IMG/VR virus record: IMGVR_UViG_3300009709_000021
Span: 38,183 to 102,182 of that record
Origin: a virus
Strand: one strand, 5' to 3'
DNA length: 64,000 nucleotides
Part shown: positions 34,951-61,109 of the stretch, piece after piece
How the letters are laid out: every line of letters starts with the position of its first letter
How positions within the stretch are numbered: the first letter of the stretch is position 1
Translations under genes and position numbers: made by a program
The notes under the pieces: generated by a model
Told to the model about the DNA's origin: nothing
Seen by the model: only the letters and a program-made list of their open reading frames with translations
Database searches by the model: none

Positions 34951-35733
34951 TTAGTCACCTAAGACGATAGCGAAAATAATTGAGTCGATTTGACTGTTTT
35001 GTAAATCTTGAAGTGAAGAATACTCACTCTGGTAAATCATGTATTGATCCCCAACTGAAGGGGAACCGGGTAATGGGTTAGACCAAGTTACCCCAGTTGT
35101 AGATGCTGCTGTCACAAGACGAGGCAGCCCAATTTGGGAACCTGAAGTAAATTGGACGATATACTGACCAGCAGCCGGCGTTCCTAATGTTGATAGCGCA
35201 CTTGATAAAGGTAAAAAAGTTTGTGTTACGCCTGAAGGAGCGGAACCCGAAGCTATTGTGGAAGGATGATTTACAAATCTCCATGTATTATCACTACGGG
35301 CCACAGCAATAATAGGGTTACCTCCATCATCTGTTGACACCGAAACATAAGTAACAGAATCACTTGTCTCTGGAGTAGATAAACTTTCCACTGAAGCGAC
35401 AGGGGCCATGACATCGACAAAACGAGTGAATGACGTAAACGTTTCAGCAGTTGCACGGTTTTCACAAGTTGTTCCCGACGGCCACGCAAGTGCTGTCGTA
35501 TTTTCTAAACCACGAATGCATCCTGTGAATGCACCGTTGGAAACTCCGTATACTTGGACAATTTCATAAGTAGTTCCCGATACTAAAGTAACCAAGAAAT
35601 ACTGTCCCGTTGTCAGGGTGGTTGTCTGAAATGCAGTTGTATCTGCCACGGGAATAGTCGTGTCGGAAGCTCCAATTGCCGCAGCCAGGGAAGTTTTCGC
35701 GTTATTGAAATAAACTCGTTGACTGATTGCCAT
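34951..35733 (-). CDS. virion structural protein (fibre attachment-like)
   Basis: NNAKTSLAAAI...EIV.V......RGLENTTA..W..G...ENR.TA motif typical of tail proteins. Confidence 0.75.
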   Translation of the reverse strand: MAISQRVYFNNAKTSLAAAIGASDTTIPVADTTAFQTTTLTTGQYFLVTLVSGTTYEIVQVYGVSNGAFTGCIRGLENTTALAWPSGTTCENRATAETFTSFTRFVDVMAPVASVESLSTPETSDSVTYVSVSTDDGGNPIIAVARSDNTWRFVNHPSTIASGSAPSGVTQTFLPLSSALSTLGTPAAGQYIVQFTSGSQIGLPRLVTAASTTGVTWSNPLPGSPSVGDQYMIYQSEYSSLQDLQNSQIDSIIFAIVLGD

Positions 35734-38776: not shown

Positions 38777-41185
38777 TTAAACCGCCAAACTGTTAGTTGT
38801 AACGTTATTTAGAATAAACACAGAAGTTGCATCCATTGGATCAAGGTAATCTGTAATCGTACCTGTCGTAGGTGGAACTAAGTAACGAGTATAGTTCGTA
38901 TATGATACACCAATTGGAGTTTGAATGCCAGTAATTCCTGCTTCTGTCAACGCCGAAATTAAATCTCCCATAACAAAAGTTGCCCCTGGGCTGAGAGAAG
39001 ATAAATAGGTGTTAACTGTGGTGGTAACAGTTGAAGCATCCGGAGTAGCAGAATTATACGCAACAAGGCTAATGTCTAACAGATAAAAATTAAAGCCACG
39101 GGCTAATAAATCAGCACACATAACTCTATTAGCCGAAGCTTCCAGATACGTTTGAATATCGCTGAGATAGTTAAAGTAGTTCACCAAGAAACTGGCAGTA
39201 GAATTGGCGTATTGACTGCCAAAACTAATAGTAATAGATTGTTCCGTAGAAAATCCATAATCCTCCCAAGGAATAACCGACGTTGCGGTAATTGTTCCTG
39301 TCGCTGGGCTAGACAATGTAGTACTTTCATTAAATGTATACGTATTCTGGTCTATAACAGACTGTACCACCCATGATCCATTGTATCCAGCAGGGCTTGC
39401 ACCTTGAATAGAAATATATTCACCTACAGAAAGACCGTGGTTAGGCTGCACAACAGTAACAACTCCATCACTATAAGTTAGAGAAGTAACATTTAATGTC
39501 TGGGCATAAGTATTTTTAGAAGTATAAGGAACATTAGTTTCAATAACTAGTGTTCCAGAGGTTGTTCCTTCAATCCAAAGAGTTGGTACAGGAATCTCAT
39601 AGGCGTTGGGACCAAGCACTGTAACCGGGTAACTGCCTGTCAAATTAGGATTAACAAGTTGCATTGCTGAACCCGAACCGGCGGTAGGAATATTGGCGGC
39701 AACTGTGTAAGTTAACGTATTTGCATTTGTAGCTACGACAATAAATGTACCGTTATAGGTAGTGGGAGTAACTCCCGCAACTGTCACAGTTGCTCCGGTA
39801 GCTAATCCATGAGGAACGCTAGTACTGATGCTTACGGTAAAGCCCGTACAAGAAATAGCACTAATAGAAATAATCTGGGTAAGACCAGAAATAGCTACGT
39901 CTTCTCCAGTTATTAGTCCATGGTTTGTCTGAGCAACTTGAATCATTTGTCCTGGTTGATTCAAAGTATAGCTAGAATACGCCAGGGCGTTCTGAAACGG
40001 GATGGTATCGGCAGATGACCCACCAGTAACTGCTGAGCGAGAAAACGAATACACGGGTCCTGTGAGCGTTGCATTGCCGTTAGCATCTGTTGTTAGTTGA
40101 CTAATTTCTGAAGCCAAGGAATTACCACAATAAATATCTACGCAACCTCCATTGTGAAGTAACACTGGAACGTAAACAGGAACAATTGATGGAAAGTTTG
40201 TAACTTGGACAGTCGGTACATCATCCATCACATAAGTAAAGGTGTTAGTATCAAGAACCGTAATTGAAAAACCTCCATTTAATACACTTGGCTTTCCCCC
40301 TGTAGCAATGATGTTTTGTCCGGTTTGAAATCCGTGATTTGGAACAGTGATAGTTGCAATGTCACTTTCATATGTAACTGCGGTAGGTGTAACAGGTTGA
40401 GGCGTTGTAATGTTTGCGTATATTTGATCTCGAATCATCTGGGCATCGCCAAATCCAACCGGAAAAATCTGGGAAAGGTAATTGAAATTAGCAGCCAGAT
40501 TGGATTGAATTGACGGAACATTGATAAGGTTACGAGTTGAGATAGCCGTACTAGCTCGTGTAACAAATTGAGTGTTTGTCTCTGCATTGGTAGACGAGGA
40601 GACAAGATAATTAATTTGTGCTTGTAAAAAGTAAGCGTTGAAATTAGAGAAATATAGCAACGAACCAGACGAAAGATCGTATGATGATCCTGTCGCTGCT
40701 GCTGTAAGGTTTACATCAACGTAATACTCATTTGAGTACGAATCGTATTGCAGTGCAGTTGCAGCAAACGAGTAAGTTGTGCTTGGGTAATACAGCAAAG
40801 TATTATCGGGACTAAACCAGATATCCGTAGTCAATGTCACTGTTACTTGGCGAGCAAAATATAGGCGGACATTGATAACTGAGTAAGTTCCCTCATTACG
40901 AGTTAAAAACCAGTTAGACAGCAGATTATCAACAATACTTGTATCTGTGTTATCCGTTACTTGGGATATGGTATTATTCGCAAAATAATAATTAAGGGCT
41001 GCTCTAACAGTTGCAAGTGCTAGGGCAGAAGGACGAATCGTAAGATCAGCTAGACCGGTCCCTGAACGGAGGTCCAGGTCGGGATATTGAGCTGATAATA
41101 TTTGTTGTGTGAGGAGTTCCGCCTCAGTAACGTCGTTCGCGCTTACTGTAAGTCCGTCTAGGACATTGTATAGATCACCGGCCAT
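38777..41185 (-). CDS. baseplate J/gp6-like protein with inserted repeated beta domains
   Basis: PDLDLRSGT...DL.IRP start, ETN..F..R; four HG[LF]..G..[VI].[IV].G modules. Confidence 0.8.
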   Translation of the reverse strand: MAGDLYNVLDGLTVSANDVTEAELLTQQILSAQYPDLDLRSGTGLADLTIRPSALALATVRAALNYYFANNTISQVTDNTDTSIVDNLLSNWFLTRNEGTYSVINVRLYFARQVTVTLTTDIWFSPDNTLLYYPSTTYSFAATALQYDSYSNEYYVDVNLTAAATGSSYDLSSGSLLYFSNFNAYFLQAQINYLVSSSTNAETNTQFVTRASTAISTRNLINVPSIQSNLAANFNYLSQIFPVGFGDAQMIRDQIYANITTPQPVTPTAVTYESDIATITVPNHGFQTGQNIIATGGKPSVLNGGFSITVLDTNTFTYVMDDVPTVQVTNFPSIVPVYVPVLLHNGGCVDIYCGNSLASEISQLTTDANGNATLTGPVYSFSRSAVTGGSSADTIPFQNALAYSSYTLNQPGQMIQVAQTNHGLITGEDVAISGLTQIISISAISCTGFTVSISTSVPHGLATGATVTVAGVTPTTYNGTFIVVATNANTLTYTVAANIPTAGSGSAMQLVNPNLTGSYPVTVLGPNAYEIPVPTLWIEGTTSGTLVIETNVPYTSKNTYAQTLNVTSLTYSDGVVTVVQPNHGLSVGEYISIQGASPAGYNGSWVVQSVIDQNTYTFNESTTLSSPATGTITATSVIPWEDYGFSTEQSITISFGSQYANSTASFLVNYFNYLSDIQTYLEASANRVMCADLLARGFNFYLLDISLVAYNSATPDASTVTTTVNTYLSSLSPGATFVMGDLISALTEAGITGIQTPIGVSYTNYTRYLVPPTTGTITDYLDPMDATSVFILNNVTTNSLAV

Positions 41186-43828: not shown

Positions 43829-46498
43829 TTAACTACCTGAAGTCTGTGCTGTGTTTAAAGTTTGAATTTCTTGCTTAATACTACTTGCATTAATAAAGTC
43901 CGAAGTATCCTGGTAATCCACGAATAATGATGCGCCGGGTTCTAATAGTATACTTTTATCCAAAATTGGATTTAAATAACTAGACGCTTGTTGGGAATAC
44001 AGAGTAGGATCTAAATCAATAAAATTAATTCCAAAGGCTGCCATTATAGCTTGTTTGCCTTCAATCTGTCTAGCAGATAAAGATAGATTTCCAACGACGG
44101 ACATGTAAGGGTTAGTTTCTATACCATTGCCGTCCGGTGAGCTTTGTGCAACGCCAGAAGCCAGTTGTCCATTTGACCGAGTCACTGCGCTCGGCTGTCC
44201 ATAATCAAAGGCATAAAGTAAGCTTGGATCCGCAGCTCCAATTCCTAAAGTAGTCTGGTAGTACTCCGTTGCCGCAGCCAAAGCAGTCGGGTTATTAATC
44301 AAAGTCTGTTCCACCGATTGGATTGTCCCAGTCGGAGAACCGTATGAGGCTGAACCTGTAGTAGTTGTAGCAGTCGTACTGCTATTAGCAACTTGACCAA
44401 TCTGACCTGATGGTACTGTTGTAGTTCCACCTGACGTAGAAGTACTCGTTCCATACTGGACGTTATTCACATTCAGTATGTTTTGAAGCCAAGGTGCAAC
44501 AGGAGGAATGTAATAATTCGACATCTCCGCGTAAGTCATCGCTCCAACAAAACTAACTGTTGTGCTGATACTACTGGCCGTAATATTGTGGGTGATAGAA
44601 GCACATGTCGCGTGGAAGCAAGGATACGCTGGACTTGAATCAATAATATCCATCGGGTATCCACAGACAATATATGGATTGAACACCATCTCAATTATCC
44701 CGCTACGGGCTTGCTCCACGCTTTTTGCAAATTCATAGTCCGCCGTGTTAAATAACATTCTCTGGAAAGGAGCGATTTGAGATTGTGGAGAATTCGGGTC
44801 CATCGTATCCTTTGATGTATTCAAAGTACGAGTAACGACCCCGTCATTTTCCGTAATGTCGTATCCATAGCGATCTACCCAGGCTGCATGCATATTGACC
44901 AGATCGTTATAGTCTGCAGTTCCCTGAGCCGGCCATGCTTCGTTGTTTGGGTCTCCTACATTGGGTATTTGATCCGCAATATAGAACGAAAGCCAGTTTG
45001 GCATTACTACCTTGCGCTGCACAACGCCTCGGGCTTCTTCGTATTTGCCGGGAACGTTGTAGGAAGGACCGGTTGTACTCAACAGATCAATAGTATTCTG
45101 AGCGCCGGATGCATTAGCAAGACTCACTCCAACTGCTACCGCCTCACGGACAGATTCAGGGGCTCGATAGAAAGTATTGAGCGCCCCGCCGCCATCGTTT
45201 GGTAGCATGTCTGTGTACGCAGTTACACGAGTTGGCACACTCGCCTCATCCTGGCTAACACTGATGGATGTAAACATCTGAGGATAAACAACGTTACATA
45301 CAGGGGCGTAATAGAAGGGCGTCTGTGGCTTAATAACAGTTTCAACAGCCATGCGGTTAGCACTGGCCCATGCAGAAGCACTATCAGGATTTACGTACGT
45401 TGTCGGATCGACGGGAACTGCAGCGGGGCTAGCCAATGTCAAATACTCATACTCAACAGAGTAAAAAAAGTTATTCATCATTGTGATGAAATCTGTCAAT
45501 TCCCCGGAGTAGCCCATTTGACTCTTAACAGCATAGACGGTCAATGCCGTCTTCATTGCTGAAACACTTGGCAATTGGCTGGATGGTGGAACTAGGAGAT
45601 TGTATTTGACATCCGACGGGGGAATATCGTGAGGGCAGTACTGTTCACGATGTGTCTCAGCATAGTTTTCAACAAGGTAATGACCAGAGATACGATTAAA
45701 GAATTTAAGCCCATCTTCCACCAATGGAATATACATAGAGGTCATCGTTGAACTCCATGCTGGGGCCATATAGCATTGACGTTTAAACTGATTCCAGATA
45801 TTCATCATACTACCTGGAATACCGGCATAGCGAGGGATGAAGCCTTGAAATTTTGTTGCAGCTTTGGTGACATCAGCCTCGGAGATCTGAGTATTAGTGG
45901 GGCCTAGCAAATCTTGAGCAGCAGACTGAACACCAGTAATTCCTGATAAAGCATTGATAATACTTAACTCGGAAGTCATTAAATCAACTTTCAACGCTGC
46001 TTGTTCTGGGTTAGGATCAGTGCCGTTAGACATGTTAGAGCCTACATAGCCGTTGTAGTCCAGAGTCACAAGTTTCATTAATTCATTCTTGTGTACGCAC
46101 TGAAAGCTGATCGATGATGAGGCAGGGCTACGTGAACGGGAGTACTCTACTCGTGCAATATGCCCCCAGAACAAAAGCCTATCTCCACCAGTGATCTGAT
46201 CAGTGTAAAAAATATGGACTTTGGGCTGATAGTAACGAGCAATGTCCATGAGTCCTGCTTGCGGAGGGACTGAGATCATTGCTGATGGGTAGGTCCCGAT
46301 AGATTGGGAAATGGAAATAGCTGTAAATGGGACCTGAACGCCTTCTATGTAAAGTTTAACTGTCTGATAAATGACATCCGTAAAAGTATTACCGGAAGGG
46401 ACTGCACCTTCAGATCCTGTTACCGACCCATCAGAATTAAGAGTGACCGTGGAAGCTGCAGGGGTAGTTCCAAGTGAAATAGTGAAGTTGTCAGACAT
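43829..46498 (-). CDS. baseplate hub-like structural protein
   Basis: KLYIEGVQVPF..ISISQ, LLFWG.I, FNPYIVCGYP..I.D, A..SITH.I; position after tape measure. Confidence 0.7.
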   Translation of the reverse strand: MSDNFTISLGTTPAASTVTLNSDGSVTGSEGAVPSGNTFTDVIYQTVKLYIEGVQVPFTAISISQSIGTYPSAMISVPPQAGLMDIARYYQPKVHIFYTDQITGGDRLLFWGHIARVEYSRSRSPASSSISFQCVHKNELMKLVTLDYNGYVGSNMSNGTDPNPEQAALKVDLMTSELSIINALSGITGVQSAAQDLLGPTNTQISEADVTKAATKFQGFIPRYAGIPGSMMNIWNQFKRQCYMAPAWSSTMTSMYIPLVEDGLKFFNRISGHYLVENYAETHREQYCPHDIPPSDVKYNLLVPPSSQLPSVSAMKTALTVYAVKSQMGYSGELTDFITMMNNFFYSVEYEYLTLASPAAVPVDPTTYVNPDSASAWASANRMAVETVIKPQTPFYYAPVCNVVYPQMFTSISVSQDEASVPTRVTAYTDMLPNDGGGALNTFYRAPESVREAVAVGVSLANASGAQNTIDLLSTTGPSYNVPGKYEEARGVVQRKVVMPNWLSFYIADQIPNVGDPNNEAWPAQGTADYNDLVNMHAAWVDRYGYDITENDGVVTRTLNTSKDTMDPNSPQSQIAPFQRMLFNTADYEFAKSVEQARSGIIEMVFNPYIVCGYPMDIIDSSPAYPCFHATCASITHNITASSISTTVSFVGAMTYAEMSNYYIPPVAPWLQNILNVNNVQYGTSTSTSGGTTTVPSGQIGQVANSSTTATTTTGSASYGSPTGTIQSVEQTLINNPTALAAATEYYQTTLGIGAADPSLLYAFDYGQPSAVTRSNGQLASGVAQSSPDGNGIETNPYMSVVGNLSLSARQIEGKQAIMAAFGINFIDLDPTLYSQQASSYLNPILDKSILLEPGASLFVDYQDTSDFINASSIKQEIQTLNTAQTSGS

Positions 46499-47361
46499 TA
46501 AGAGACCACATTAGCAAAGAGTGATTGAAGAGCCAGCAAATATAACGTTTGTTCAAGAGGATCTTGAATGCTCCCAGCATAGTTGGAAAGTTCTGATGGG
46601 ATGTTATTATTACTGACTGTAGCATCAAGCACTACATTGAGTATAGCACTATTAATTATAGAGGTCAATAAAAGAGACCTGGTAGGTAGTAGTTCTCTTG
46701 GCAATGGCAACATCCCAAGCATTGCACCTGAGTATTGTTCTGCAAGGTAGATCAAAAAGGGCGCACGGTTATAACTCGTATATCGAACGGTTATGCCTCC
46801 ATCTTCAGCTAAAGGAATAGTCAATGTTAATGTCGTATCTGAAATTGTGTAATCAACACCTTGCGTATATAATTGCCCTTCGTAGTAAACGTAGTTATAA
46901 GCGTATTGGGCCGGACTTAAAGTCAAAGTAAATACAGTTTGTCCTTGGACGCCAGACAATGCATCTGTTGTTATAGCATATTCTGGATAAACAATTACGC
47001 GATCATTCACATTTGGGACTGTTGCTCGTGGAAAAGACGCTGCATAACATGTTGCACAAATACCTCCGGAAGCAATGCATGTACTAGTTGAGCGTGTGGC
47101 TACTGAGTAAATGCCATTATATAAAAGCTGCCCAATTCTATCACGGCTCAAAGGTTCACCTGTGGCTAATTCCACTAAGCCTTCTGCAGTGTAATTAACA
47201 GTTACAAATAAGCCAAGAGTTGTTCCGCAATCTGTTGCTACTACTTTTAGATTAGGTGAAAAAACCGTATTAGCCAAGTTGACCACATCTTGGTTTGTCG
47301 TTGGGACATAATCATAAATATCTTCCAGGATTAAAAGTCCTGCGTAACTACGCATTGTCAT
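46498..47361 (-). CDS. tail-module protein with an RpoC(beta')-like Zn-binding subdomain fused to a virion beta module
   Basis: DCGTTLG...RSTSTCIASGGICATCY aligns with RpoC DCGT..G...RS...C....G.CA.CY; then a GQTVFTL...GVDYTIS module. Confidence 0.65.
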   Translation of the reverse strand: MTMRSYAGLLILEDIYDYVPTTNQDVVNLANTVFSPNLKVVATDCGTTLGLFVTVNYTAEGLVELATGEPLSRDRIGQLLYNGIYSVATRSTSTCIASGGICATCYAASFPRATVPNVNDRVIVYPEYAITTDALSGVQGQTVFTLTLSPAQYAYNYVYYEGQLYTQGVDYTISDTTLTLTIPLAEDGGITVRYTSYNRAPFLIYLAEQYSGAMLGMLPLPRELLPTRSLLLTSIINSAILNVVLDATVSNNNIPSELSNYAGSIQDPLEQTLYLLALQSLFANVVS

Positions 47362-53011: not shown

Positions 53012-53040
53012 ATTATACGTGAATTTTCACGCACTGTCAA
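53012..53040 (-). promoter_or_regulatory. perfect sigma70 consensus promoter with palindromic spacer
   Basis: TTGACA-GTGCGTGAAAATTCACG(17)-TATAAT; CGTGAA-N2-TTCACG inverted repeat. Confidence 0.8.
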
Positions 53041-54677
53041 AGAAACTCTAGCCGACCTTCTTGGTTATCAGGTACTTCGTCCAAATAGGTAAATTCTTGG
53101 CGTAAAATTTGGCTAGCAACATCGCAGAATACCCAGGAATGCAAAGCATCATCAGTTAAGTCTTCATCCTTTCGATATACTCTCCGGCCGGCTTGAGTTT
53201 CCTCTTCAAATACATTAAGTGCATCTTGCCAAAATTCACCAGTTAAGCCCCATGAAGGAGTTTCGAATTTATCCCGCCCAAGTTTTGCTTTAATAATCAT
53301 ATGGTCCATAGCCATTGTACGATCAGCAGAAAAGAATCCACCTATACGATCCCAACGAAGAGGATGTTTGGCAGCGACATACTGAATCATATTCGCTTGA
53401 TCTTTGCCTAAAGCACGTTGGAGAAGCTGGGCTTGAAGTACGCCAACTCCTCGATCAGATGCCAACATTGTGCAACGAAACTGACGATATAATTGTTCGA
53501 CTCGGGCCACTTGTTCTAGGATGTCCACGCCATTAAGACGTTGACAATAAAGTAGATACACTTTACCTTTGGAATCATGTCCCATGATAGAAATGACTGT
53601 ATAGCTTTTATCAGAACCGGAGACTGACCAGTCTACCCCAAGAGTTGTATATAGAATATGGCGATCATCAGTAGGGAACTCAGTATCCCAAGCTGTTCTA
53701 TCTGGATTGCAACAAGCCATACATTCTCTGAGGGAAAGAATACGTCCACCAATACCGGCAGCTAATCCATAAACTTCGTTTGCCAGTTTAGTTGCAGGAT
53801 AAGTCTCAAATTTTTCAACTAAGTTTTTCCATTTATCTGGCTTTGTACGAGCATGGAAAATAAGTTGTGGACAATGAAAACCAATATTATCAGCCCTATC
53901 AGGCTTTGCTGCCATCCATTGCCCATTACGTACGTCCAAAGTTTTTCCGCAATGGATACATCCAGGACCGTCTTTCCCTTTCATCATTTTCGAACAATTT
54001 TCAAAGTCAATAGGAACAGTATAACGTGAGCAATGTTCACATTTCATAACCCATTCACTCATGCTAGACCGTTTCCAAACGATCTCAAGGCTATTATTTT
54101 CTCCCTTGGCTGTACCAGTAAGTCGGACAAACCCGAAATCAGAAGCGCTTGTTGTTTCTCTGAGAATAGGGAGGGCATCCATACTCATATCCTGAAACTC
54201 ATCGCAATTCAAGATACCAATATTTGCAATACCCCGGATGCGGTCGGCATCGCTTTCAGTTTCACAATACCCAATATAGATGATAGAACCATTGCGCATA
54301 CTTTTTTCAAAAACGTTTTTGCGTGATTCCCCATCTATGAAGTATTTCCTTACAAGTGGCGACCGTAAAAAAGGATCGATATACGCAGTGGAAAATCTAG
54401 AAGATTGTTGTTGTAAAGGAGCAACATATAGTGTATTGAAGTATGGTCTCATGATACTATTCGTCAAGAAGATTGCGGCAAGAGAAAGACTTTTACCGAT
54501 CTGACGACCCGCTTTAATTACTAACGTGTTTGGGGCGTAATCATAGATATCTTTGAATGGTTCATATCCGGTAAACCCTAATGGCTTTCCTTGAAATTGC
54601 AAAAGGGCAGCCGCAGCTTGTGATAAGGAAGCTTTCACAGGGGCGTTGACATCGGACGAAGTTTGTATTATACTCAT
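53037..54677 (-). CDS. terL: terminase large subunit
   Basis: Walker A KAGRQIGKS, Walker B LNCDEFQD, GTAK coupling motif, CxxC..CxxC, nuclease LGVDWS and DDALHS. Confidence 0.92.
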   Translation of the reverse strand: MSIIQTSSDVNAPVKASLSQAAAALLQFQGKPLGFTGYEPFKDIYDYAPNTLVIKAGRQIGKSLSLAAIFLTNSIMRPYFNTLYVAPLQQQSSRFSTAYIDPFLRSPLVRKYFIDGESRKNVFEKSMRNGSIIYIGYCETESDADRIRGIANIGILNCDEFQDMSMDALPILRETTSASDFGFVRLTGTAKGENNSLEIVWKRSSMSEWVMKCEHCSRYTVPIDFENCSKMMKGKDGPGCIHCGKTLDVRNGQWMAAKPDRADNIGFHCPQLIFHARTKPDKWKNLVEKFETYPATKLANEVYGLAAGIGGRILSLRECMACCNPDRTAWDTEFPTDDRHILYTTLGVDWSVSGSDKSYTVISIMGHDSKGKVYLLYCQRLNGVDILEQVARVEQLYRQFRCTMLASDRGVGVLQAQLLQRALGKDQANMIQYVAAKHPLRWDRIGGFFSADRTMAMDHMIIKAKLGRDKFETPSWGLTGEFWQDALNVFEEETQAGRRVYRKDEDLTDDALHSWVFCDVASQILRQEFTYLDEVPDNQEGRLEFL

Positions 54678-54723: not shown

Positions 54724-54764
54724 TGGTATAAGAATTTTGGAGAGAGACTATATGTTTCTCTCCA
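54724..54764 (+). promoter_or_regulatory. phage promoter motif TGGTATAAG plus leader hairpin
   Basis: Motif 54724-54732; TGGAGAGAGAC-TATAT-GTTTCTCTCCA stem. Confidence 0.75.
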
Positions 54765-54803
54765 GTTGTGCAACTAAAAACTTTTTGATTCAAAAGGCAT
54801 ACC

Positions 54804-54989
54804 ATGGATATCCAAAACACCACCATCGTGAACAACTCGACTGGCTCCTCGTTCCAAATCCCGGGCGACTGGAGTGCGGAACAAGTTCAAGCGAACTACC
54901 CTGACCTCAGCGGCCTGCGCGCTACCTCGTCGACCAATGGCGAAACCCGCACGCTGACGTTCTCGCCGGTCACCGGCGCGAAGGGTTAA
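54804..54989 (+). CDS. prokaryotic ubiquitin-like protein (PRTRC protein C-like)
   Basis: 61 aa; SAEQVQANYPDL and C-terminal TF....GAKG resemble the PRTRC-C/Prok_Ub S.EQV....YPEL...F....GxKG pattern; same cassette as E2, JAB and E1. Confidence 0.8.
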   Translation: MDIQNTTIVNNSTGSSFQIPGDWSAEQVQANYPDLSGLRATSSTNGETRTLTFSPVTGAKG

Positions 54990-55058
54990 GCTGTAATTCG
55001 GCGCGTTGGACCTCGGACCTAGAGTAGTTTTCTAGGTCTGGTTAGGTCCAGTAGTAGG

Positions 55059-55091
55059 AAAACCGGACTCTCAATGGGTCCGGTTTTTTTT
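55059..55091 (+). terminator. Rho-independent terminator after Ubl gene
   Basis: AAAACCGGACTC-TCAAT-GGGTCCGG followed by T8. Confidence 0.85.
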
Positions 55092-55112
55092 AGTCTTTTC
55101 GAACGTTTTATT

Positions 55113-55121
55113 TGGTATAAG
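55113..55121 (+). promoter_or_regulatory. phage promoter motif TGGTATAAG
   Basis: Exact motif copy after the terminator. Confidence 0.7.
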
Positions 55122-55204
55122 AAAAATAGAGGCAATAAATCCTTTGTACGATTCGTCGTACAAATTCTTAACATCCTGTTTTCTTTTCGTTGGAGGCATT
55201 TGCG

Positions 55205-56068
55205 GTGAAAATCAAAGTCCCTTCGAATAGGCTGCCGAATTCTCAAGCCTATCAATCATTAATCAAAATGGCCCACGAACGCCTGGTCGGCATAACCATT
55301 AAGCAATTGATGGAAAGTGGAATTGTCAATACTGCCTACGGTAGAGGTCTTGATTTTACAACTGCAGCTTCCATAGAAGATTCCATTCACCATTATATGA
55401 ATTTGGTGATTCGCTATCTTACCCAGCAATATCCATATATCAGCCTCGTCAAATCTGGTTTTGAAAAACCTATCCGAGGCGGTTCATCGGGTGTTGGTAT
55501 AGGAGTTCAATTCATTTTTAAAGATCAAGATCCTATATTCCAAAGTTTGAAAACGATCCGAGACATAGATGATGCAAATGGGCCCGGGGCAAATAACTCA
55601 GAAGTAGTTATGTTTGGAGTACCGAAATGGTTGAATCGGTACATAGCGAAAATCAATGCTTTGTGCATTAAAAATCGTGTGCCTGGGTCAATTAGTCTTA
55701 GTGTCAACCAGTATTCTTCAATTCCCAGCGGATTTTCCTCAAGTTCAAAGCCGTCAGATCGTGCTTACATCAGAATCACAATTTATTTCGATCCGGTCTT
55801 TATGCGCCCGAATGATGCCAATGCATCTTGGACTTCCAGTTACGGCAAGTTCGGCCGTGGTAGAAACCAATTTAATTCCTCCGTCGGATATTTCTGTGTG
55901 ATGAAAAGTCCTCAAGAGGAAATGGGAGATACCAAGAGGGGAATGGATGGTGTAATTTCTATGCCCTTGTATTCTTTGGCGTTCTTTGCCAAAGATATCG
56001 CCCAGATTGTTAAAACTCTTCACCGAAAGGCTGAATATGTTCCTTCAGTATTTGCAGTCAAACTTTGA
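55205..56068 (+). CDS. hypothetical protein in the Ubl cassette
   Basis: Basic ~287-aa ORF; GTG 55205 after GGAGG. Confidence 0.7.
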   Translation: MKIKVPSNRLPNSQAYQSLIKMAHERLVGITIKQLMESGIVNTAYGRGLDFTTAASIEDSIHHYMNLVIRYLTQQYPYISLVKSGFEKPIRGGSSGVGIGVQFIFKDQDPIFQSLKTIRDIDDANGPGANNSEVVMFGVPKWLNRYIAKINALCIKNRVPGSISLSVNQYSSIPSGFSSSSKPSDRAYIRITIYFDPVFMRPNDANASWTSSYGKFGRGRNQFNSSVGYFCVMKSPQEEMGDTKRGMDGVISMPLYSLAFFAKDIAQIVKTLHRKAEYVPSVFAVKL

Positions 56069-56345
56069 AGGCCTGGACGATATCTCCAAGCCAATTGAAT
56101 ACGGATTGGATATCCTTGAAAAGACGAAAGAGTTTTCGTCTCTTGAAGATGTTTCTTATCTTTTCACTTGTTTACGTCGAGCCCAGACAGACCTTGCTCA
56201 AGTAAGTAAAGGCCCGGCAAAAGGCAATCCTACATTGAGTTCGACAAGGCGGGCGTCCAGAGACGCTTTGAATGCCATCGAATCAATGACGCCGAATTTT
56301 AAACGCTATGTCTCCGTCTATGACGACGACGACGATTTCATCTAA
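56037..56345 (+). CDS. hypothetical helical protein in the Ubl cassette
   Basis: Likely ATG 56037; acidic DDDDD C-terminal tail. Confidence 0.6.
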   Translation: MFLQYLQSNFEGLDDISKPIEYGLDILEKTKEFSSLEDVSYLFTCLRRAQTDLAQVSKGPAKGNPTLSSTRRASRDALNAIESMTPNFKRYVSVYDDDDDFI

Positions 56346-56354
56346 GGAGTTAGT

Positions 56355-57227
56355 GTGAGTGACATCCAAACTAATGCAAATGTGGCGGGATCGGGGAATA
56401 CCGAAAGTAGTACTCCGGTACCCGCCGCGCCGGCTGTCGGTGATTTGGTCAAGGCTGCCATTGCGGATAACAAGGCAGTCGCTGAAGCGCCAAAAGCGCC
56501 AGTAAAAGAAGTGATGATGAAAGGCGTCGATATCAAGCTTCTCGAAGATGCCGCCATTGTCACAATGCCGAACGGAACTTCCAAAACAATCTCATTGCAA
56601 GACTGTTATAACATGATCAGTTTTGCTTTCCAGAAAGCAGTGGAAGATAACGGTGCAGAAATCATGCTTCCGAAGAATTGTATTTACATTCGGACCACAA
56701 GCAAGACGATGTACATAACGTTGTATTACCCTGAAGGAACATACGATCTACATTATCAGTATGGTGGTACAGATCGGAAGTTTAAAATTCCAACTCCGAA
56801 TATTGTTGTGTGTCTGACTTTGGACATCACGACAAATTCAAAAGGAGATGCAGAAGCTCGCGTCACAAGCGCAAAGTACTTTTGCACGGATTACCCTCAA
56901 GGTGCCTTCAAAGTCAAGCACTCGACTTCTGTTGACCATAATCTCGGCCTGTATTTGCTACCATTTTCGAATATCTACGAAGATGCCAAGCTATGCACCG
57001 GGGAGAATGCTATGCCCACAGTAATGCCACGCAACGACTTGCGTCGGCTTAACTGGCACTTCGAAGTATTGTGGAATTCTCCGTTCAACAACGATCTCGG
57101 GCTCCATGCAGTTCGAGATTGGGAGAGCAATGTGCAAAGTTGGTATGTGCATCTCCAAGAAAGGCATCAACAAGGTTTGAAGTTCCCGTATGAAAAGCTT
57201 CGTGGTTACCGACCCGCCGCAATTTAA
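56355..57227 (+). CDS. prokaryotic E2 family D (PRTRC protein B-like) conjugating enzyme
   Basis: IPTPNIV, LY.LPFSNIYEDAKLCTG (putative catalytic Cys), WNSPFNNDL; SD AAGGAG. Confidence 0.82.
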   Translation: MSDIQTNANVAGSGNTESSTPVPAAPAVGDLVKAAIADNKAVAEAPKAPVKEVMMKGVDIKLLEDAAIVTMPNGTSKTISLQDCYNMISFAFQKAVEDNGAEIMLPKNCIYIRTTSKTMYITLYYPEGTYDLHYQYGGTDRKFKIPTPNIVVCLTLDITTNSKGDAEARVTSAKYFCTDYPQGAFKVKHSTSVDHNLGLYLLPFSNIYEDAKLCTGENAMPTVMPRNDLRRLNWHFEVLWNSPFNNDLGLHAVRDWESNVQSWYVHLQERHQQGLKFPYEKLRGYRPAAI

Positions 57228-57248
57228 CCTTCAGTATTAGGAAACAAT

Positions 57249-59114
57249 ATGCATATCCTCCAACCGTACTTCCGAGTTGTTGTTGCGTCGAAGGCTGACT
57301 TCGAGAAAGCTCAACAGGAAAACTATCCCGAGATCTTTATGATCACGACTGACGGGATTTACAAGCATCATCGTCTAGGCGCGAACGGAAGTGAACGATA
57401 CGTTTGCGCGAAAGTTCCGGCCATTCCTGGCTACGAGATGATGATCCCGCCGAAACAAGAAACAAAATTCTTGCCTGACGGGAAAGTTCCGGGCGAACTG
57501 TTTGAGCAAATCGTCAGTTTATACCGTGAAGTGATGCGGGTCAACAACGGCCGAAATCTCGAAGCGATGGCGTGGATTCTGTGGACTAAAGAGCAAGGAT
57601 ATTTTATCCATGTTCCGAAGCAGCAAGTTTCTGGCGCAAGTGTCAACTACGATTGGGATATTCCCGAAGGTAGCACTGTGATTGTGGATACTCATTCACA
57701 TAACAGCATGGGGGCATTCTTCTCCGGCACAGATGACGGCGACGACCGTAAGGGTGTTCGCTACTCAGGTGTGGTCGGTAAGTTGACGGCAACCACTTTC
57801 GAAATGATCTGGCGGTTCTGCTACCAGGGCAAGTTCTTCGACACCAAATTCGACGACATCTTTGCGCCGCCCCGGGCGGAGGTTAACCCGGATTGGTTGG
57901 GAAAGATCGAGACACACTCGTATGGTGGTTATCAAGGATACGGGTATCAGGGGGGTCGGGCAGGAAGTCACAACGGAAGCAACGGCACGGGAACAACAGC
58001 TTCGACTGGCGGGACGAGCGGGACGGTGGGACGGAATCGAGCGGACCATCTGAGGCCATATCAGTTTCAACCGGGGGGCGGAAGAAACGGCGGGGCGGGA
58101 AACACTGGAAGCGGAACCGGGGGTGCTAATTCTACGGGTCGGCCTCATGAAGACGCCTACGATTTCGACGCTCAGTACGAAGACTACTACCGCAGATTGT
58201 CTGGTCAACCTGCATCCGATGGTACCGGACCAACTTCCAGACCGCCAACTCCGACAGGTCGGCCGGTGTATGACCAGCGTACTCGTGTAGCAACAACGAT
58301 CGATCCGAGTGCTTACGACAATTCCTCACGGACTCCCGCTGCAACTCAGGAGAACCAGGGAAACGTATCGGCCGGAACACCGACGGGGACAGCATTAACG
58401 GTGGTTCCGGCAAAGGGCGGAGAGGCCGTGATCGTGGACGCAAATGGTCAGCCATTGAAGAATTCATCCGAGAAGCTGACGACGGCTCAATCGCTCCTAG
58501 CCGACATGGAAAAAGTTCACGGCGCGGCGGTGGGGGCAAACGGAACGGAAAGTAACGCTACTACTCCTGAACCTAAAACCGATGCATTTCCGTTTCCGAA
58601 AGGTTCGGATTTCATAGATAAAGGGAATGGAGAGCTCGCACCCTTAGGAGGGCCCGCAGCGGGGGAGCGCTCGGGGACTAACGCCAAGAATATTTTGGCC
58701 GAAGTCCCCGTCGATCTGTCTGAAGAAGAAGCTGATGCCATCCTTCGTAATCTCGCTAACCGTGCAATGTGGGAGGCAGGAGGTGAAGGTTTTGACATCG
58801 AAGGGCACAACGAAAGTTTGGGGTTTCTACCTGACGGAGCGGGGGAAGAAGGTGTTTCCATCTCCGGCTTCGAGGAACATCCCCGTTTTCAAGATATCGC
58901 AGTTAACTATGGAGTAACCGTAGCTAATGCATTCTGCTTAATCAACGAATTATCTGTTGAATTTGCGGGCGGCGGTTGCGATGAAATGATAATGGAAATC
59001 GTTGGTGACTTCTTCCAACTCTTACCAGAGGACTCAGCAGTGAAGACGTTTCGGAATCTATATGAATTTCTGTCGGCAAAGAATCAAGCCGATATCAATT
59101 CTAAAGGCATCTAA
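57249..59114 (+). CDS. JAB/MPN+ metallopeptidase (PRTRC protein A-like) with long disordered linker and acidic C-terminal domain
   Basis: Catalytic Glu in NLEAMA, VPKQQVS, JAMM motif DTHSHNSMGAFFSGTDDGDD, SGVVGKL. Confidence 0.92.
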   Translation: MHILQPYFRVVVASKADFEKAQQENYPEIFMITTDGIYKHHRLGANGSERYVCAKVPAIPGYEMMIPPKQETKFLPDGKVPGELFEQIVSLYREVMRVNNGRNLEAMAWILWTKEQGYFIHVPKQQVSGASVNYDWDIPEGSTVIVDTHSHNSMGAFFSGTDDGDDRKGVRYSGVVGKLTATTFEMIWRFCYQGKFFDTKFDDIFAPPRAEVNPDWLGKIETHSYGGYQGYGYQGGRAGSHNGSNGTGTTASTGGTSGTVGRNRADHLRPYQFQPGGGRNGGAGNTGSGTGGANSTGRPHEDAYDFDAQYEDYYRRLSGQPASDGTGPTSRPPTPTGRPVYDQRTRVATTIDPSAYDNSSRTPAATQENQGNVSAGTPTGTALTVVPAKGGEAVIVDANGQPLKNSSEKLTTAQSLLADMEKVHGAAVGANGTESNATTPEPKTDAFPFPKGSDFIDKGNGELAPLGGPAAGERSGTNAKNILAEVPVDLSEEEADAILRNLANRAMWEAGGEGFDIEGHNESLGFLPDGAGEEGVSISGFEEHPRFQDIAVNYGVTVANAFCLINELSVEFAGGGCDEMIMEIVGDFFQLLPEDSAVKTFRNLYEFLSAKNQADINSKGI

Positions 59115-59128
59115 CTAACCCGTCACAT

Positions 59129-59170
59129 TGGTATAAGAGACGCAGAGGGGATTTACTCCTTTGTGTCTCT
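59129..59170 (+). promoter_or_regulatory. phage promoter motif TGGTATAAG plus leader hairpin
   Basis: Motif 59129-59137; AGAGACGCAGAGGGG...CTCCTTTGTGTCTCT stem. Confidence 0.75.
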
Positions 59171-59187
59171 TAATTTTAGGAGGATAT

Positions 59188-60663
59188 GTGTTTACATACA
59201 GACCGCATACCATGCCGCAGCAATTCTTCATCATTGGCGGCGGCGGGACGGGTGGCAGATTGGTTCCTCTTTTGGCTCAGTTTCTTCGGTCTATTACGAA
59301 GGATGTTGGACCAAGAGGTTGGTTGATAGACCCGGCCATTGTCATTATCGATGACGACGTTGTGGAGACGAAGAATTTGATTCGTCAAAACTTCATTCAG
59401 CGGGATGTCGGAAAACCGAAAGCAATTGTTTTGGCCGAGCGTTATTCGAAGGCGTTTGGCATAAACATTCATCCAATCGTTGAACGAGTTACCTCAGCAA
59501 TGGCAATGGAAAAAGTTCTTGCTGAAAAAGTTCCAAGCAGAGATTTTATCGGTTCAAAAGATGCGATAGTATTTCTGTGTGTTGATTCGGTTAAAGCCCG
59601 AAGGGAAGTGTTACTTGCGTTTACGCATATGAACATGAACCTTCATTCAAAGCCGTATTTTGTCATCGACGCTGGCAACGAAGATACGTTTGGACAAGTA
59701 AAGTTCTTTCATCTTCAGACTATTGCGTCGGGTTTTCAAGAGAAGACAAGTGCTGTTTCAACGATGAAAGTTCCTCCGATGGTTCCGGAGAAAGTCAGCA
59801 TTCCGTTCATTCCGCTTGATCCGAAGTACTATGACAGTATCGTTGATAATCAAGCGGCGAGCTGTGCAGATTTGGACCAAACTTTAGCCATCAATGCTCA
59901 AATGGCAACGATGATGATGGGTGTGGCTCAGAACTACATGTACTTCAAACCCTTCACATATAGTGGCCGTAGCTTCGACCTGATGGGAGCAGGTAATACG
60001 TCTTGGATGACGATGGATGCTATCCGGCGTATGACGTGGTTCATGAAAGAAGTGGTGCCGGTGAGCTCATTTTGTGCCAATTTCCCCAAGGCGAGAAGTG
60101 CTCCGGCTAAAGCGATTCTGGACGACTATGTCACGAAGAACCGCGACAAGCTGGTTACTATGGGCATTGATCCGGATACTGGTAGGAAGTACGAATCGAT
60201 GAAAACAGTGTCAATCATCGAAGATCCAAAACCAGTGGAAGCAGTAAAAGTAGAGGTTGAGGAAATGGCGTTGGAACCTGTGTCTGCCCCAGTTATTTCG
60301 ACTCCAGTTGAAGTAGTCGGTGGACGGCCAGCCCAATTTATTACTACCACGCCTCCGCCGCCACCTCCTGCAGCAGTACGGGCAGCACAACGCTTGAACG
60401 CAACTCCACAACCAGATACCGGTGAGATGGCAGATCGTGCAATGTGGCCATTCCCGACGGGGGATAGGCATCCAGTAGCAGCCGAGAGGAGTGCGGCTGA
60501 GACTGCATTACATGAAGCGATTCGAGTATTGGGAAACAATACTGCAGCGGTAGGATTGGATGAAGCGATTCGAGTATTGGGAAACAATACTGCAGAGGTT
60601 GAACCAATGATGGATGAAGTTGAAATGCCGGTGATATCACCACCGCCGGTTGCATTGCCGTAA
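59188..60663 (+). CDS. ThiF/E1-family ubiquitin-like activating enzyme with Pro-rich tail
   Basis: IIGGGGTGG, IDDDVVETKNLIRQNF, K..VLAERY, CVDS, IDAGN, SCAD (putative catalytic Cys), IN..MA; GTG 59188 after AGGAGG. Confidence 0.93.
   Translation: MFTYRPHTMPQQFFIIGGGGTGGRLVPLLAQFLRSITKDVGPRGWLIDPAIVIIDDDVVETKNLIRQNFIQRDVGKPKAIVLAERYSKAFGINIHPIVERVTSAMAMEKVLAEKVPSRDFIGSKDAIVFLCVDSVKARREVLLAFTHMNMNLHSKPYFVIDAGNEDTFGQVKFFHLQTIASGFQEKTSAVSTMKVPPMVPEKVSIPFIPLDPKYYDSIVDNQAASCADLDQTLAINAQMATMMMGVAQNYMYFKPFTYSGRSFDLMGAGNTSWMTMDAIRRMTWFMKEVVPVSSFCANFPKARSAPAKAILDDYVTKNRDKLVTMGIDPDTGRKYESMKTVSIIEDPKPVEAVKVEVEEMALEPVSAPVISTPVEVVGGRPAQFITTTPPPPPPAAVRAAQRLNATPQPDTGEMADRAMWPFPTGDRHPVAAERSAAETALHEAIRVLGNNTAAVGLDEAIRVLGNNTAEVEPMMDEVEMPVISPPPVALP
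60512..60595. repeat. 36-bp exact direct repeat (48-bp period) encoding EAIRVLGNNTA
   Basis: 60512-60547 = 60560-60595. Confidence 0.9.
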
Positions 60664-60668
60664 AGAAC

Positions 60669-60700
60669 AAAGCCAGACAAAATATCGTCTGGCTTTTTTT
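60669..60700. terminator. intrinsic terminator closing the Ubl cassette
   Basis: AAAGCCAGAC-AAAATATC-GTCTGGC followed by T7. Confidence 0.8.
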
Positions 60701-61109
60701 AGCTTACTAACTCTCGGGAAGCTTCGGTGAGAGTATCAGTGACGTTATATGTGTTAAGGGTTGTTCCATCTTGACGAACCAGAGTCAAGACTCCAGTAGT
60801 TTTATCCCATGACCAAGAGCCGAGGGCTTCATCTTCAATATTTTGTAAGAACGACTGATCAGAGCGAGTAGTAACATTCACTCGTGCTTGGAGTTCGCCG
60901 AAACAGAAGACATCGTAGACACCAGTGGAAGTTGGGGTGAATGTAAGGGAGTAAAGATTGCCTGTACCCACATATGCCACAGTAATAGTAGTTGAATTTG
61001 TAGCACCATTTAGATATAAGGCCAAGTCAGGGATAACCGTCAAGCTAGGCTCATTGCCATTGACCATGACAAAAGCTTGGGTGTTAACGGGAGAATTAAA
61101 TGTTGTCAT
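60699..61109 (-). CDS. probable virion structural protein (Ig-like)
   Basis: T-rich and Lys-poor; G.Y.L.FTP...G.Y, ALGSWSWDK. Confidence 0.6.
   Translation of the reverse strand: MTTFNSPVNTQAFVMVNGNEPSLTVIPDLALYLNGATNSTTITVAYVGTGNLYSLTFTPTSTGVYDVFCFGELQARVNVTTRSDQSFLQNIEDEALGSWSWDKTTGVLTLVRQDGTTLNTYNVTDTLTEASRELVS

Follow-up and report, generated by a model that had tools for sequence, protein, structure and literature searches.

The subject of this report is a gene cassette of the ubiquitin-like protein (Ubl) conjugation kind in the viral record IMGVR_UViG_3300009709_000021, an IMG/VR contig of 102,182 bases with a CheckV completeness of 77%. The stretch that was analyzed, referred to as the window, is the right-hand 64-kb part of this contig, and all positions are window positions unless otherwise indicated. 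The + strand block at 54724-60696 contains six genes in the order Ubl-unk1-unk2-E2-JAB-E1, is framed by three copies of a promoter-like motif, TGGTATAAG, and by two terminators, and is placed between - strand blocks of virion genes. Its features and the two adjoining genes are as follows (aa, amino acids; ORF, open reading frame):

54724-54732, + strand: first TGGTATAAG motif, extended -10 type, preceding the Ubl gene
54804-54989, + strand: Ubl gene, 61 aa, predicted beta-grasp, C-terminus TGAKG followed by the stop codon
55056-55090, + strand: intrinsic terminator 3' of the Ubl gene, a 15-pair stem and then a T run
55113-55121, + strand: second TGGTATAAG motif, preceding unk1-unk2-E2-JAB
55205-56068, + strand: unk1, 287 aa, start taken from an identical database protein
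56037-56345, + strand: unk2, 102 aa, helical, overlapping the end of unk1
56355-57227, + strand: E2-like protein (Prok-E2_D), 290 aa, with Cys214 in LPFxNxYxxxxxCxG
57249-59114, + strand: JAB/JAMM metallopeptidase (Pfam Prok-JAB), 621 aa
59129-59137, + strand: third TGGTATAAG motif, preceding E1
59188-60663, + strand: ThiF-type E1, 491 aa if started at GTG 59188; open ORF of 500 aa beginning at 59161
60669-60696, both strands: bidirectional terminator hairpin closing the cassette against the convergent gene
53037-54677, - strand: terL (PHROG terminase, 1e-50), divergent from the cassette
60699-61109, - strand: convergent gene beyond the cassette, facing the closing terminator

A sequence-only reading of this DNA had described such a cassette, and all of its elements were found where that reading had placed them. 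It had also described the block as lying, in opposite orientation, between terL and other - strand head-region genes. The orientation relative to terL was borne out, while an identification of the - strand genes downstream as head genes was not possible.

The motif TGGTATAAG occurs six times in the window (6267, 6648, 8539, 54724, 55113, and 59129) against 0.57 copies expected, a count reached in 0 of 100 shuffles, and eight more copies lie upstream of the window. All 14 copies across the 102-kb contig are on the + strand, each before non-structural genes, and no copy was found anywhere in the contig on the - strand, which carries the virion genes. The motif, with three copies in the cassette, is thus common to the cassette and the + strand non-structural genes, as the sequence-only reading had proposed. 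The aligned TGGTATAAG sites have TTGGTATAAGA in common, the extended consensus of the promoter-like motif over the 14 sites is approximately TGGTATAAGAAAGTTAGAG, and no conserved -35 hexamer was found at these sites. A promoter-like element, TTCAATATTT...TGGTATAA(T/G), was also recognized by eye before the Ubl gene in most of 14 related loci. Because a terminator stands after it, the Ubl gene forms a transcription unit of its own, which is presumably highly expressed.

The Ubl and the three enzymes

The Ubl had no family match in Pfam, NCBIfam, PHROGs, or PADLOC, and Prok_Ub was touched by one of 18 Ubls (E 0.16). Relatives from other phages can be aligned with it from end to end and have an IPG turn, a helix, and the invariant end F-x-x-[RK]-x-G-x-K-G in common, and the G-x-KG end is retained in 31 of 31 relatives. 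An AlphaFold2 (AF2) model based on 18 sequences has a predicted local distance difference test (pLDDT) score of 90.4 and consists of a strand-strand-helix-strand-strand arrangement with a disordered seven-residue tail (residues 55-61). When the model was compared with 48,161 solved chains by VIA-align, the best 50 matches were mostly beta-grasp proteins, including GB1, protein L, MoaD, UBX, SUMO, FAT10, ISG15, and the Bil Ubl, with Z-scores of at most 4.9, low values that are to be expected for a protein of 61 residues. Foldseek gave no match of the model in the PDB at E <=0.001, and its top rows were protein G and protein L domains. A beta-grasp fold was implied by the sequence-only reading, and the model agrees with it; the predicted fold together with the flexible, Gly-ended tail suggests that the protein belongs to the functional class of Ubl modifiers.

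A HMMER profile of the phage Ubls, searched against 1.84e9 proteins, matched 142 cluster representatives. Ninety-three stop exactly at Lys-Gly, 34 have 1-10 extra residues, and 11 have longer tails. Tandem genes account for 31 of the 142, with 2-5 units that each end in G-x-K-G and short linkers between them. A tri-Ubl with five residues after the last unit occurs in Vibrio phage D69, and among the IMG/VR relatives a di-Ubl was found in two and a C-terminal extension in another two. By analogy, these tandem and extended genes are encoded in the manner of ubiquitin itself, and the linked JAMM peptidase would therefore have an obvious first job. A predicted complex of E1 (residues 10-345), Ubl, and ATP received scores of 0.10 and 0.00, the mark being 0.32, which speaks neither for nor against binding.

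Two further observations concern Ubl genes in other records. P0147, a database protein of 134 aa, carries, besides an IS1/IS1595-type N-terminal zinc-binding domain, a Ubl unit at its C-terminus that ends in RTGTKG plus four residues; the fusion could be genuine or an artefact of gene calling. In Salmonella phage Arash, the annotated coding sequence (CDS) gp251c (locus L001, 8501-8719; OQ632216.1, 180500-180718, - strand) encodes a hydrophobic 72-aa product without relatives. The clade's Ubl is found there as a 66-aa ORF in another frame (L001, 8514-8714, - strand) that ends in RTGTKG and a stop, and gp251c appears to be annotated in the wrong frame.

All three enzymes passed the cut-offs of their Pfam families, and of the four families that the sequence-only reading had put forward for such hidden Markov model searches only the Ubl remained without a match in Pfam and NCBIfam. 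The E2 matched Prok-E2_D (PF14460; E 5.4e-10, 39.7 bits, cut-off 25), its Cys214 is invariant, and the Cys motif is retained in 32 of 34 distinct relatives. The JAB protein matched Prok-JAB (PF14464; E 1.3e-7, 31.9 bits, cut-off 25) and has a complete JAMM motif, E105...H149-x-H151-x7-S159-xx-D162, in which E105, H149, H151, S159, and D162 are invariant; HxHx7SxxD is retained in 27 of 27 relatives. It is comprised of a catalytic domain (approximately residues 1-215), a linker of ~290 aa rich in G, A, T, S, and P, and a C-terminal helical domain of ~110 aa. Searches of PDB sequences with E2 and JAB profiles gave no match.

The E1 matched ThiF (PF00899; E 3.3e-12, 46.5 bits, cut-off 28.1), and its nearest solved relatives by sequence are MccB (7e-8), the NEDD8 E1 catalytic subunit, and ThiF. 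Judging from the family alignment, its true start is most likely GTG 59188, which stands behind AGGAGG. In the numbering of the 500-aa ORF, it contains the motifs GxGGTG, KNLIRQNF, VD142, and DAGNE and an invariant Cys235 in SCADL; G26, G28, G29, R33, D64, D66, K71, N72, R75, Q76, D142, and C235 are invariant, and GxGGTG, KNLxRQ, and SCADL are each retained in 26 of 26 relatives. From its position, C235 would be the thioester site. The C-terminal ~160 aa are of low complexity. In this tail (60500-60620) the peptide EAIRVLGNNTA occurs twice, 17 residues apart, a repeat that Tandem Repeats Finder did not detect at the DNA level. The annotated E1 homologue of phage D69 (OZ195729.1; locus L002, 3529-4516) has 251 aa and begins past GxGGxG. 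Since residues 20-316 of the window E1 align in one piece, by tblastn, over two annotated D69 CDSs, the start was probably mis-called there, or else the gene is interrupted.

Conservation in the clade and kinship with PRTRC

The cassette was found in Salmonella phage Arash (OQ632216) and in Vibrio phages D69, D148, and D181. The relatives in this clade have genomes of 170-193 kb and are not strictly jumbo phages, as they had been called; cultured members have been described as lytic (PMC10585845). A scan of IMG/VR seeded with JAB returned 16 loci, 15 of which belong to the clade. In all 15, Ubl, E2, and JAB are found divergent from terL, together with E1 where the locus extends far enough, and two unknown ORFs lie between Ubl and E2. 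Because circularity was to be avoided, a second survey was seeded with TerL instead of the cassette, and 37 loci with enough upstream DNA and a TerL at least 38% identical were counted. The cassette was present in 37 of 37 and stood complete and directly upstream of terL in 35; a survey of related phages had been suggested by the sequence-only reading. In the remaining two (genomes G405 and G406, one complete and one 95% complete), JAB lies 12-17 kb from terL. Two complete phages whose TerL is ~30% identical were without the cassette. In five loci (L049-L051, L057, and L059), 3-4 kb of extra DNA is found between terL and the Ubl gene, indicating that this junction tolerates insertions.

Pairwise identities of E1, JAB, and E2 track TerL identity (Spearman 0.59-0.78, with pairs that are non-independent). 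The enzymes diverge faster than TerL, as in the Arash-like group, where identities are 88% for TerL, 67% for E1, 68% for JAB, and 53% for E2. In a JAB tree, PRTRC_A proteins form one split with a support of 100/100, and the joins of two long outgroup branches to the phage sequences are unresolved (47/0); the tree is compatible with a single origin of the phage cassette. The view that the cassette is domesticated rather than hitch-hiking is supported by its presence in 37 of 37 TerL relatives, by divergence that tracks TerL, and by the retention of catalytic residues.

A megablast of the window cassette against phage records gave no match, single-sequence searches for related loci with E1 alone or TerL alone gave nothing or distant phages, and neither the window Ubl nor unk1 matched when searched against Arash and D69. 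The kinship of Ubl and unk1 with their Arash and D69 counterparts was read from alignments because these direct searches gave nothing.

In the GenBank record of Arash, the E1 and E2 homologues are labelled 'structural protein' on the basis of virion mass spectrometry. The Arash paper did not recognize the cassette; its particle proteome of 116 proteins lists cassette products. Ribonucleotide reductases, RNA ligases, and a helicase are also on that list, and presence on it therefore shows expression rather than incorporation. As proof of packaged enzymes these data were considered weak, given the 116 proteins and an imperfect match of gene numbering between the paper and GenBank.

The known system to which the cassette is closest is the ParB-Related, ThiF-Related Cassette (PRTRC), which corresponds to the operon type 6d defined by Iyer, Burroughs and Aravind in 2006 (PMC1779556). 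For this type, these authors listed a 'rapidly diverging alpha-helical protein' besides Ubl, JAB, E1, and E2. PRTRC is represented by the NCBIfam models TIGR03734-03742, an example being plasmid p352-3 of Cupriavidus sp. EM10, and has the canonical order ParB-E-C-F-B-A-ThiF; the phage order is C-like, unk1, unk2, B-like, A-like, and ThiF-like. Both thus have the Ubl, a large fast-diverging protein, E2, JAB, and E1 in the same order, and both are found on mobile DNA. The E2 Cys and the Cys of the E1 S-C-x-A-D motif align between them. In both, the Ubl has a ...G-x-K-G end, sometimes with an extension that needs trimming: plasmid PRTRC_C proteins have ...F-x-R-A-A-G-[AT]-K-G and, beyond it, an extension that is short in some and long in others, and F-x-x-x-x-G-x-K-G is common to them and the phage Ubl. 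When the phage Ubls were compared by hhalign with eight PRTRC_C proteins, the probability was 85% (E 6e-6), unrelated control pairs reaching ~0.1%. P0142, a weaker match of the phage Ubl profile, is a true PRTRC_C (58.1 bits against the TIGR03738 cut-off of 45.95). The nearest plasmid relatives of the JAB protein are annotated as PRTRC protein A and are 27-30% identical to it. The presence of the four families and the PRTRC-like nature of the cassette, as claimed from the sequence, are supported.

Several differences separate the two. ParB is part of PRTRC; ParB_N (PF02195) was not found in the contig, Arash, D69, or two complete relatives, that is, in five clade genomes, three of them complete (controls matched in 11 of 14 genomes). 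PRTRC E and F had no NCBIfam match in the phage cassette. These results are in line with the sequence-only reading, which had noted that ParB and a recognizable E/F partner were lacking. The second small protein follows Ubl in the phage and precedes it in PRTRC, the phage E2 has an extra insert compared with PRTRC_B, and the phage JAB and E1 have long low-complexity tails. Moreover, the phage cassette is fixed beside terL in a lytic clade, where poly-Ubl genes are common.

The protein unk1 occupies the slot held by PRTRC_F and resembles the 6d helical protein in its very fast divergence, keeping just an R-Y motif and a C-terminal helix among relatives. Neither unk1 nor unk2 had a family match in Pfam, NCBIfam, PHROGs, or PADLOC, and when 13 unk2 relatives were scanned with Pfam at E up to 10, no HhH family was found. 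The fold search with unk1 was uninformative because its AF2 model has a pLDDT of 58; the best VIA-align match (Z 6.2; pterin dehydratase and aminotransferase C-domains) was regarded as an unspecific alpha/beta arrangement. In the ESM Atlas nothing usable was found for unk1, and unk2 had only helical look-alikes of low confidence. Unk2 has a conserved C-terminus of acidic plus aromatic/aliphatic residues, ...DDDDDFI, and both it and PRTRC_E end with an acidic residue followed by [FL][ILFV]-COOH, a resemblance rather than demonstrated homology. The protein unk1 is a candidate adaptor or E3-like factor. In IMGVR_UViG_3300043411_002265 (locus L015, 2745-5093 and 8162-11302), the unk1 slot holds a protein of 782 aa and the E1 has 1046 aa, the counterparts in relatives being much smaller.

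Some observations on other carriers were also made. A scan of genome contigs for PRTRC_F found four loci only, all in Cupriavidus; in a 401-genome sample of that phylum, 4 genomes had PRTRC_F. On Bacillales plasmids (Lysinibacillus pHJ.T1, locus L023, 6467-11227; an Alkalihalophilus plasmid, locus L027), a longer JAB-family protein is paired with a ThiF protein, with no PRTRC B, C, E, or F annotated nearby; on one of them, genes for DNA polymerase III subunits follow immediately downstream of the pair. A Burkholderia gladioli prophage has been noted to carry a canonical, ParB-containing PRTRC whose function was described as not studied (PMC13366799).

Taken together, the assignment of the cassette as a phage-core, ParB-less, and strongly diverged member of the PRTRC/type 6d kind is well supported. 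The best explanation as a whole is a Ubl conjugation cascade of this kind whose likely targets are host or phage non-structural proteins, which we consider probable. A number of results weigh against this explanation. The best NCBIfam matches of the three enzymes are all under the respective cut-offs: PRTRC_ThiF (TIGR03736) for E1 (E 1.7e-21, 76.7 bits, cut-off 144.75), PRTRC_A (TIGR03735) for JAB (E 5.4e-20, 71.8 bits, cut-off 101.8), and PRTRC_B (TIGR03737) for E2 (E 5e-4, 19.5 bits, cut-off 131.45). The Ubl did not match the PRTRC_C model (TIGR03738) at E up to 0.1. A His C-terminal to the catalytic Cys has been called absolutely conserved in 6d E2s (Iyer 2006, Table 1; PMC1779556). When phage E2s were aligned with six PRTRC_B proteins, most of the phage sequences had S-P-F-N-x-D-L in place of F-[TAS]-H-[PS]-N, so that the Asn of SPFNNDL stands at the site of the PRTRC_B FTHPN His. 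No support came from hhalign for a relation of unk1 to PRTRC_F (probability 0.05%) or of unk2 to PRTRC_E (0.04%). In the fold search of the Ubl, protein G/L domains score like ubiquitin-like proteins, with Z at most 4.9. Early expression of the cassette is suggested by the shared promoter motif, and a PRTRC-type conjugate, thioester, or cleavage was not reported in the literature searched.

Proposed working and rival explanations

The following mechanism is proposed from the families to which the components belong. The small beta-grasp Ubl would be made abundantly from its own promoter-terminator unit, and the JAMM peptidase would cut C-extended or tandem poly-Ubl after the invariant Lys-Gly. 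The ThiF-type E1 would then adenylate the terminal Gly and take the Ubl onto the invariant SCADL Cys, from which it would be handed to Cys214 of the E2. The E2 is expected to transfer the Ubl to lysines of target proteins, for which the fast-evolving unk1 and unk2 may act as adaptors selecting targets, and JAB could also reverse the mark. Since the cassette has the promoter motif of the non-structural + strand genes rather than one of the virion genes, host or non-structural proteins are the most likely targets, and tagging would most likely serve take-over or the response to host defences. More specifically, it is possible, if rather doubtful, that this lytic lineage uses its own Ubl cascade offensively, placing an abundant and often poly-Ubl-encoded tag on host proteins, for instance those of defence or housekeeping, during cell take-over.

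The same chemistry might instead be directed at the phage's own virion or packaging proteins (head, portal, or tail) in a morphogenetic role. The cassette adjoins terL in 35 of the 37 relatives and sits between virion gene blocks, and the 'structural protein' labels of the Arash E1 and E2 homologues come from virion mass spectrometry. However, the cassette is transcribed divergently from terL with the non-structural promoter motif, of which the virion strand has 0 copies. In addition, 3-17 kb of other DNA part it from terL in some relatives, and the Arash list speaks for expression, not incorporation. This explanation is considered unlikely. A mainly counter-defensive function, in which JAB strips host-added Ubl marks such as Bil-type tags on tail fibres or CBASS conjugates of cGAS, or Ubl, E1, and E2 serve as decoys or competitors of host systems, appears quite improbable. 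It would fit the reports that host Bil and type II CBASS (signaling against phages based on cyclic oligonucleotides) turn E1/E2/JAB chemistry on phages (PMC11601603, PMC10097602), as well as the faster evolution of the enzymes than of TerL, a pattern typical of conflict genes. A deconjugase alone, however, needs no E1, E2, or abundant Ubl, yet all of these are kept with intact active sites. Models of CBASS and other defence systems gave no meaningful match, only E1-E2 matches of 13-18 bits, and Bil and CBASS are sporadic in hosts whereas the cassette is universal in the clade.

It is very improbable that no tagging takes place and that the E1 adenylates a small protein for sulfur transfer, as with ThiS/MoaD, or for a modified or nucleotide-peptide product of the MccB-like kind. 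In favour of it, MccB and ThiF are, with the NEDD8 E1 subunit, its nearest solved relatives, and MoaD is one of the proteins that resemble the Ubl in structure. However, conjugation and not sulfur transfer is marked by an E2 whose Cys is conserved, a JAMM peptidase, and poly-Ubl precursors. Moreover, none of the six cassette genes encodes a sulfurtransferase, a ThiG/MoaE-type partner, or an export function. That the cassette is a selfish or maintenance module acquired from plasmids (ParB/ThiF 'partitioning' or addiction), without a role in lytic growth, has hardly any probability. PRTRC is typical of plasmids, integrative and conjugative elements, and a temperate Burkholderia prophage, and has been annotated as a partitioning cassette (PMC13366799). 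Against such a module stand the lack of a ParB match in the five clade genomes, the fixed position, the divergence alongside TerL, the presence in all 37 relatives, and the lytic nature of the cultured members (PMC10585845).

Among the virion proteins encoded on the - strand (13689-47361), many large tail proteins are very poor in lysine (K). Two K were counted in 802 aa (38777-41185), one in 287 (46498-47361), one in 260 (34951-35733), and seven in 902 (17591-20299). Their arginine content is also low (1-3.6%), and the non-structural proteins contain 5-13% K. According to PHROGs, several of these proteins are tail spikes, tail fibres, or depolymerases. Since Ubl tags are usually attached to lysine, it is conceivable that the lysine-poor tail proteins are linked to the cassette or to Bil-type tagging by the host.

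Significance and comparison with other Ubl systems

Recent work has demonstrated the activity of three prokaryotic Ubl conjugation families, CBASS Cap2/3, Bil, and Bub, all of them in bacterial operons, and Bil and CBASS act against phages. A fourth family, type 6d/PRTRC, was predicted in 2006 and is not covered by the Bil, Bub, and CBASS papers; no test of its function was found in the literature searched. In the lytic phage clade described here, a PRTRC-type system appears as a core module that is fixed and inherited vertically, with intact active sites and with precursor genes like those of polyubiquitin. As Arash, D69, D148, and D181 are grown in the laboratory, both PRTRC-type function and Ubl tagging by a phage are directly testable. 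Offensive tagging, if true, would be the mirror image of Bil, the first virus-encoded 'ubiquitination' of a bacterial host, and the first function for the 20-year-old orphan PRTRC/6d family. Because the tag ends in Lys-Gly, trypsin would leave a single Gly (+57.02 Da) on the modified lysine; this mass equals that of the carbamidomethyl artefact, and the mark would therefore escape standard proteomics.

Bil (BilABCD) likewise has separate genes for Ubl, E1, E2, and a JAB-type deubiquitinase, and conjugation to protein lysines is expected in both systems. In the structure search, the Bil Ubl (8tyz_B) was one of the proteins resembling the phage Ubl (Z 3.5). Bil, however, defends the host by tagging the tail fibres of phages, whereas the cassette here is encoded by a phage and its E2 belongs to another family (Prok-E2_D). 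PADLOC 2.0 gave no match for Ubl, E2, or JAB, the coverage of all Bil types by its library being unchecked. Type II CBASS shares the E1, E2, and JAB chemistry through Cap2/Cap3, but Cap2 is an E2-E1 fusion that conjugates the CD-NTase and not a free Ubl, whereas the phage E1 and E2 are separate genes. The E1-E2 or cap2_3 models gave only weak matches of 13-22 bits, those of 13-18 bits being to the E1 part, and neither a CD-NTase cyclase nor an effector was found among the six cassette genes.

The Bub ('6E') systems also combine prokaryotic Ubl conjugation with a peptidase, and their Ubls have 1-3 beta-grasp domains (PMC11601603). They differ in having a DUF6527-type E2 and domain fusions, which had no match in the cassette, and in that the phage tandem units each end in a G-x-K-G predicted to be cleavable and are joined by short linkers, as in polyubiquitin. 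With eukaryotic polyubiquitin the phage precursors share head-to-tail repeats or extra C-terminal residues, so that a dedicated peptidase must expose the terminal Gly. There is no sequence kinship between them beyond the fold, the phage Ubl ends in Lys-Gly instead of Gly-Gly, and in the phage system the peptidase belongs to the JAMM enzymes and is a product of the cassette itself.

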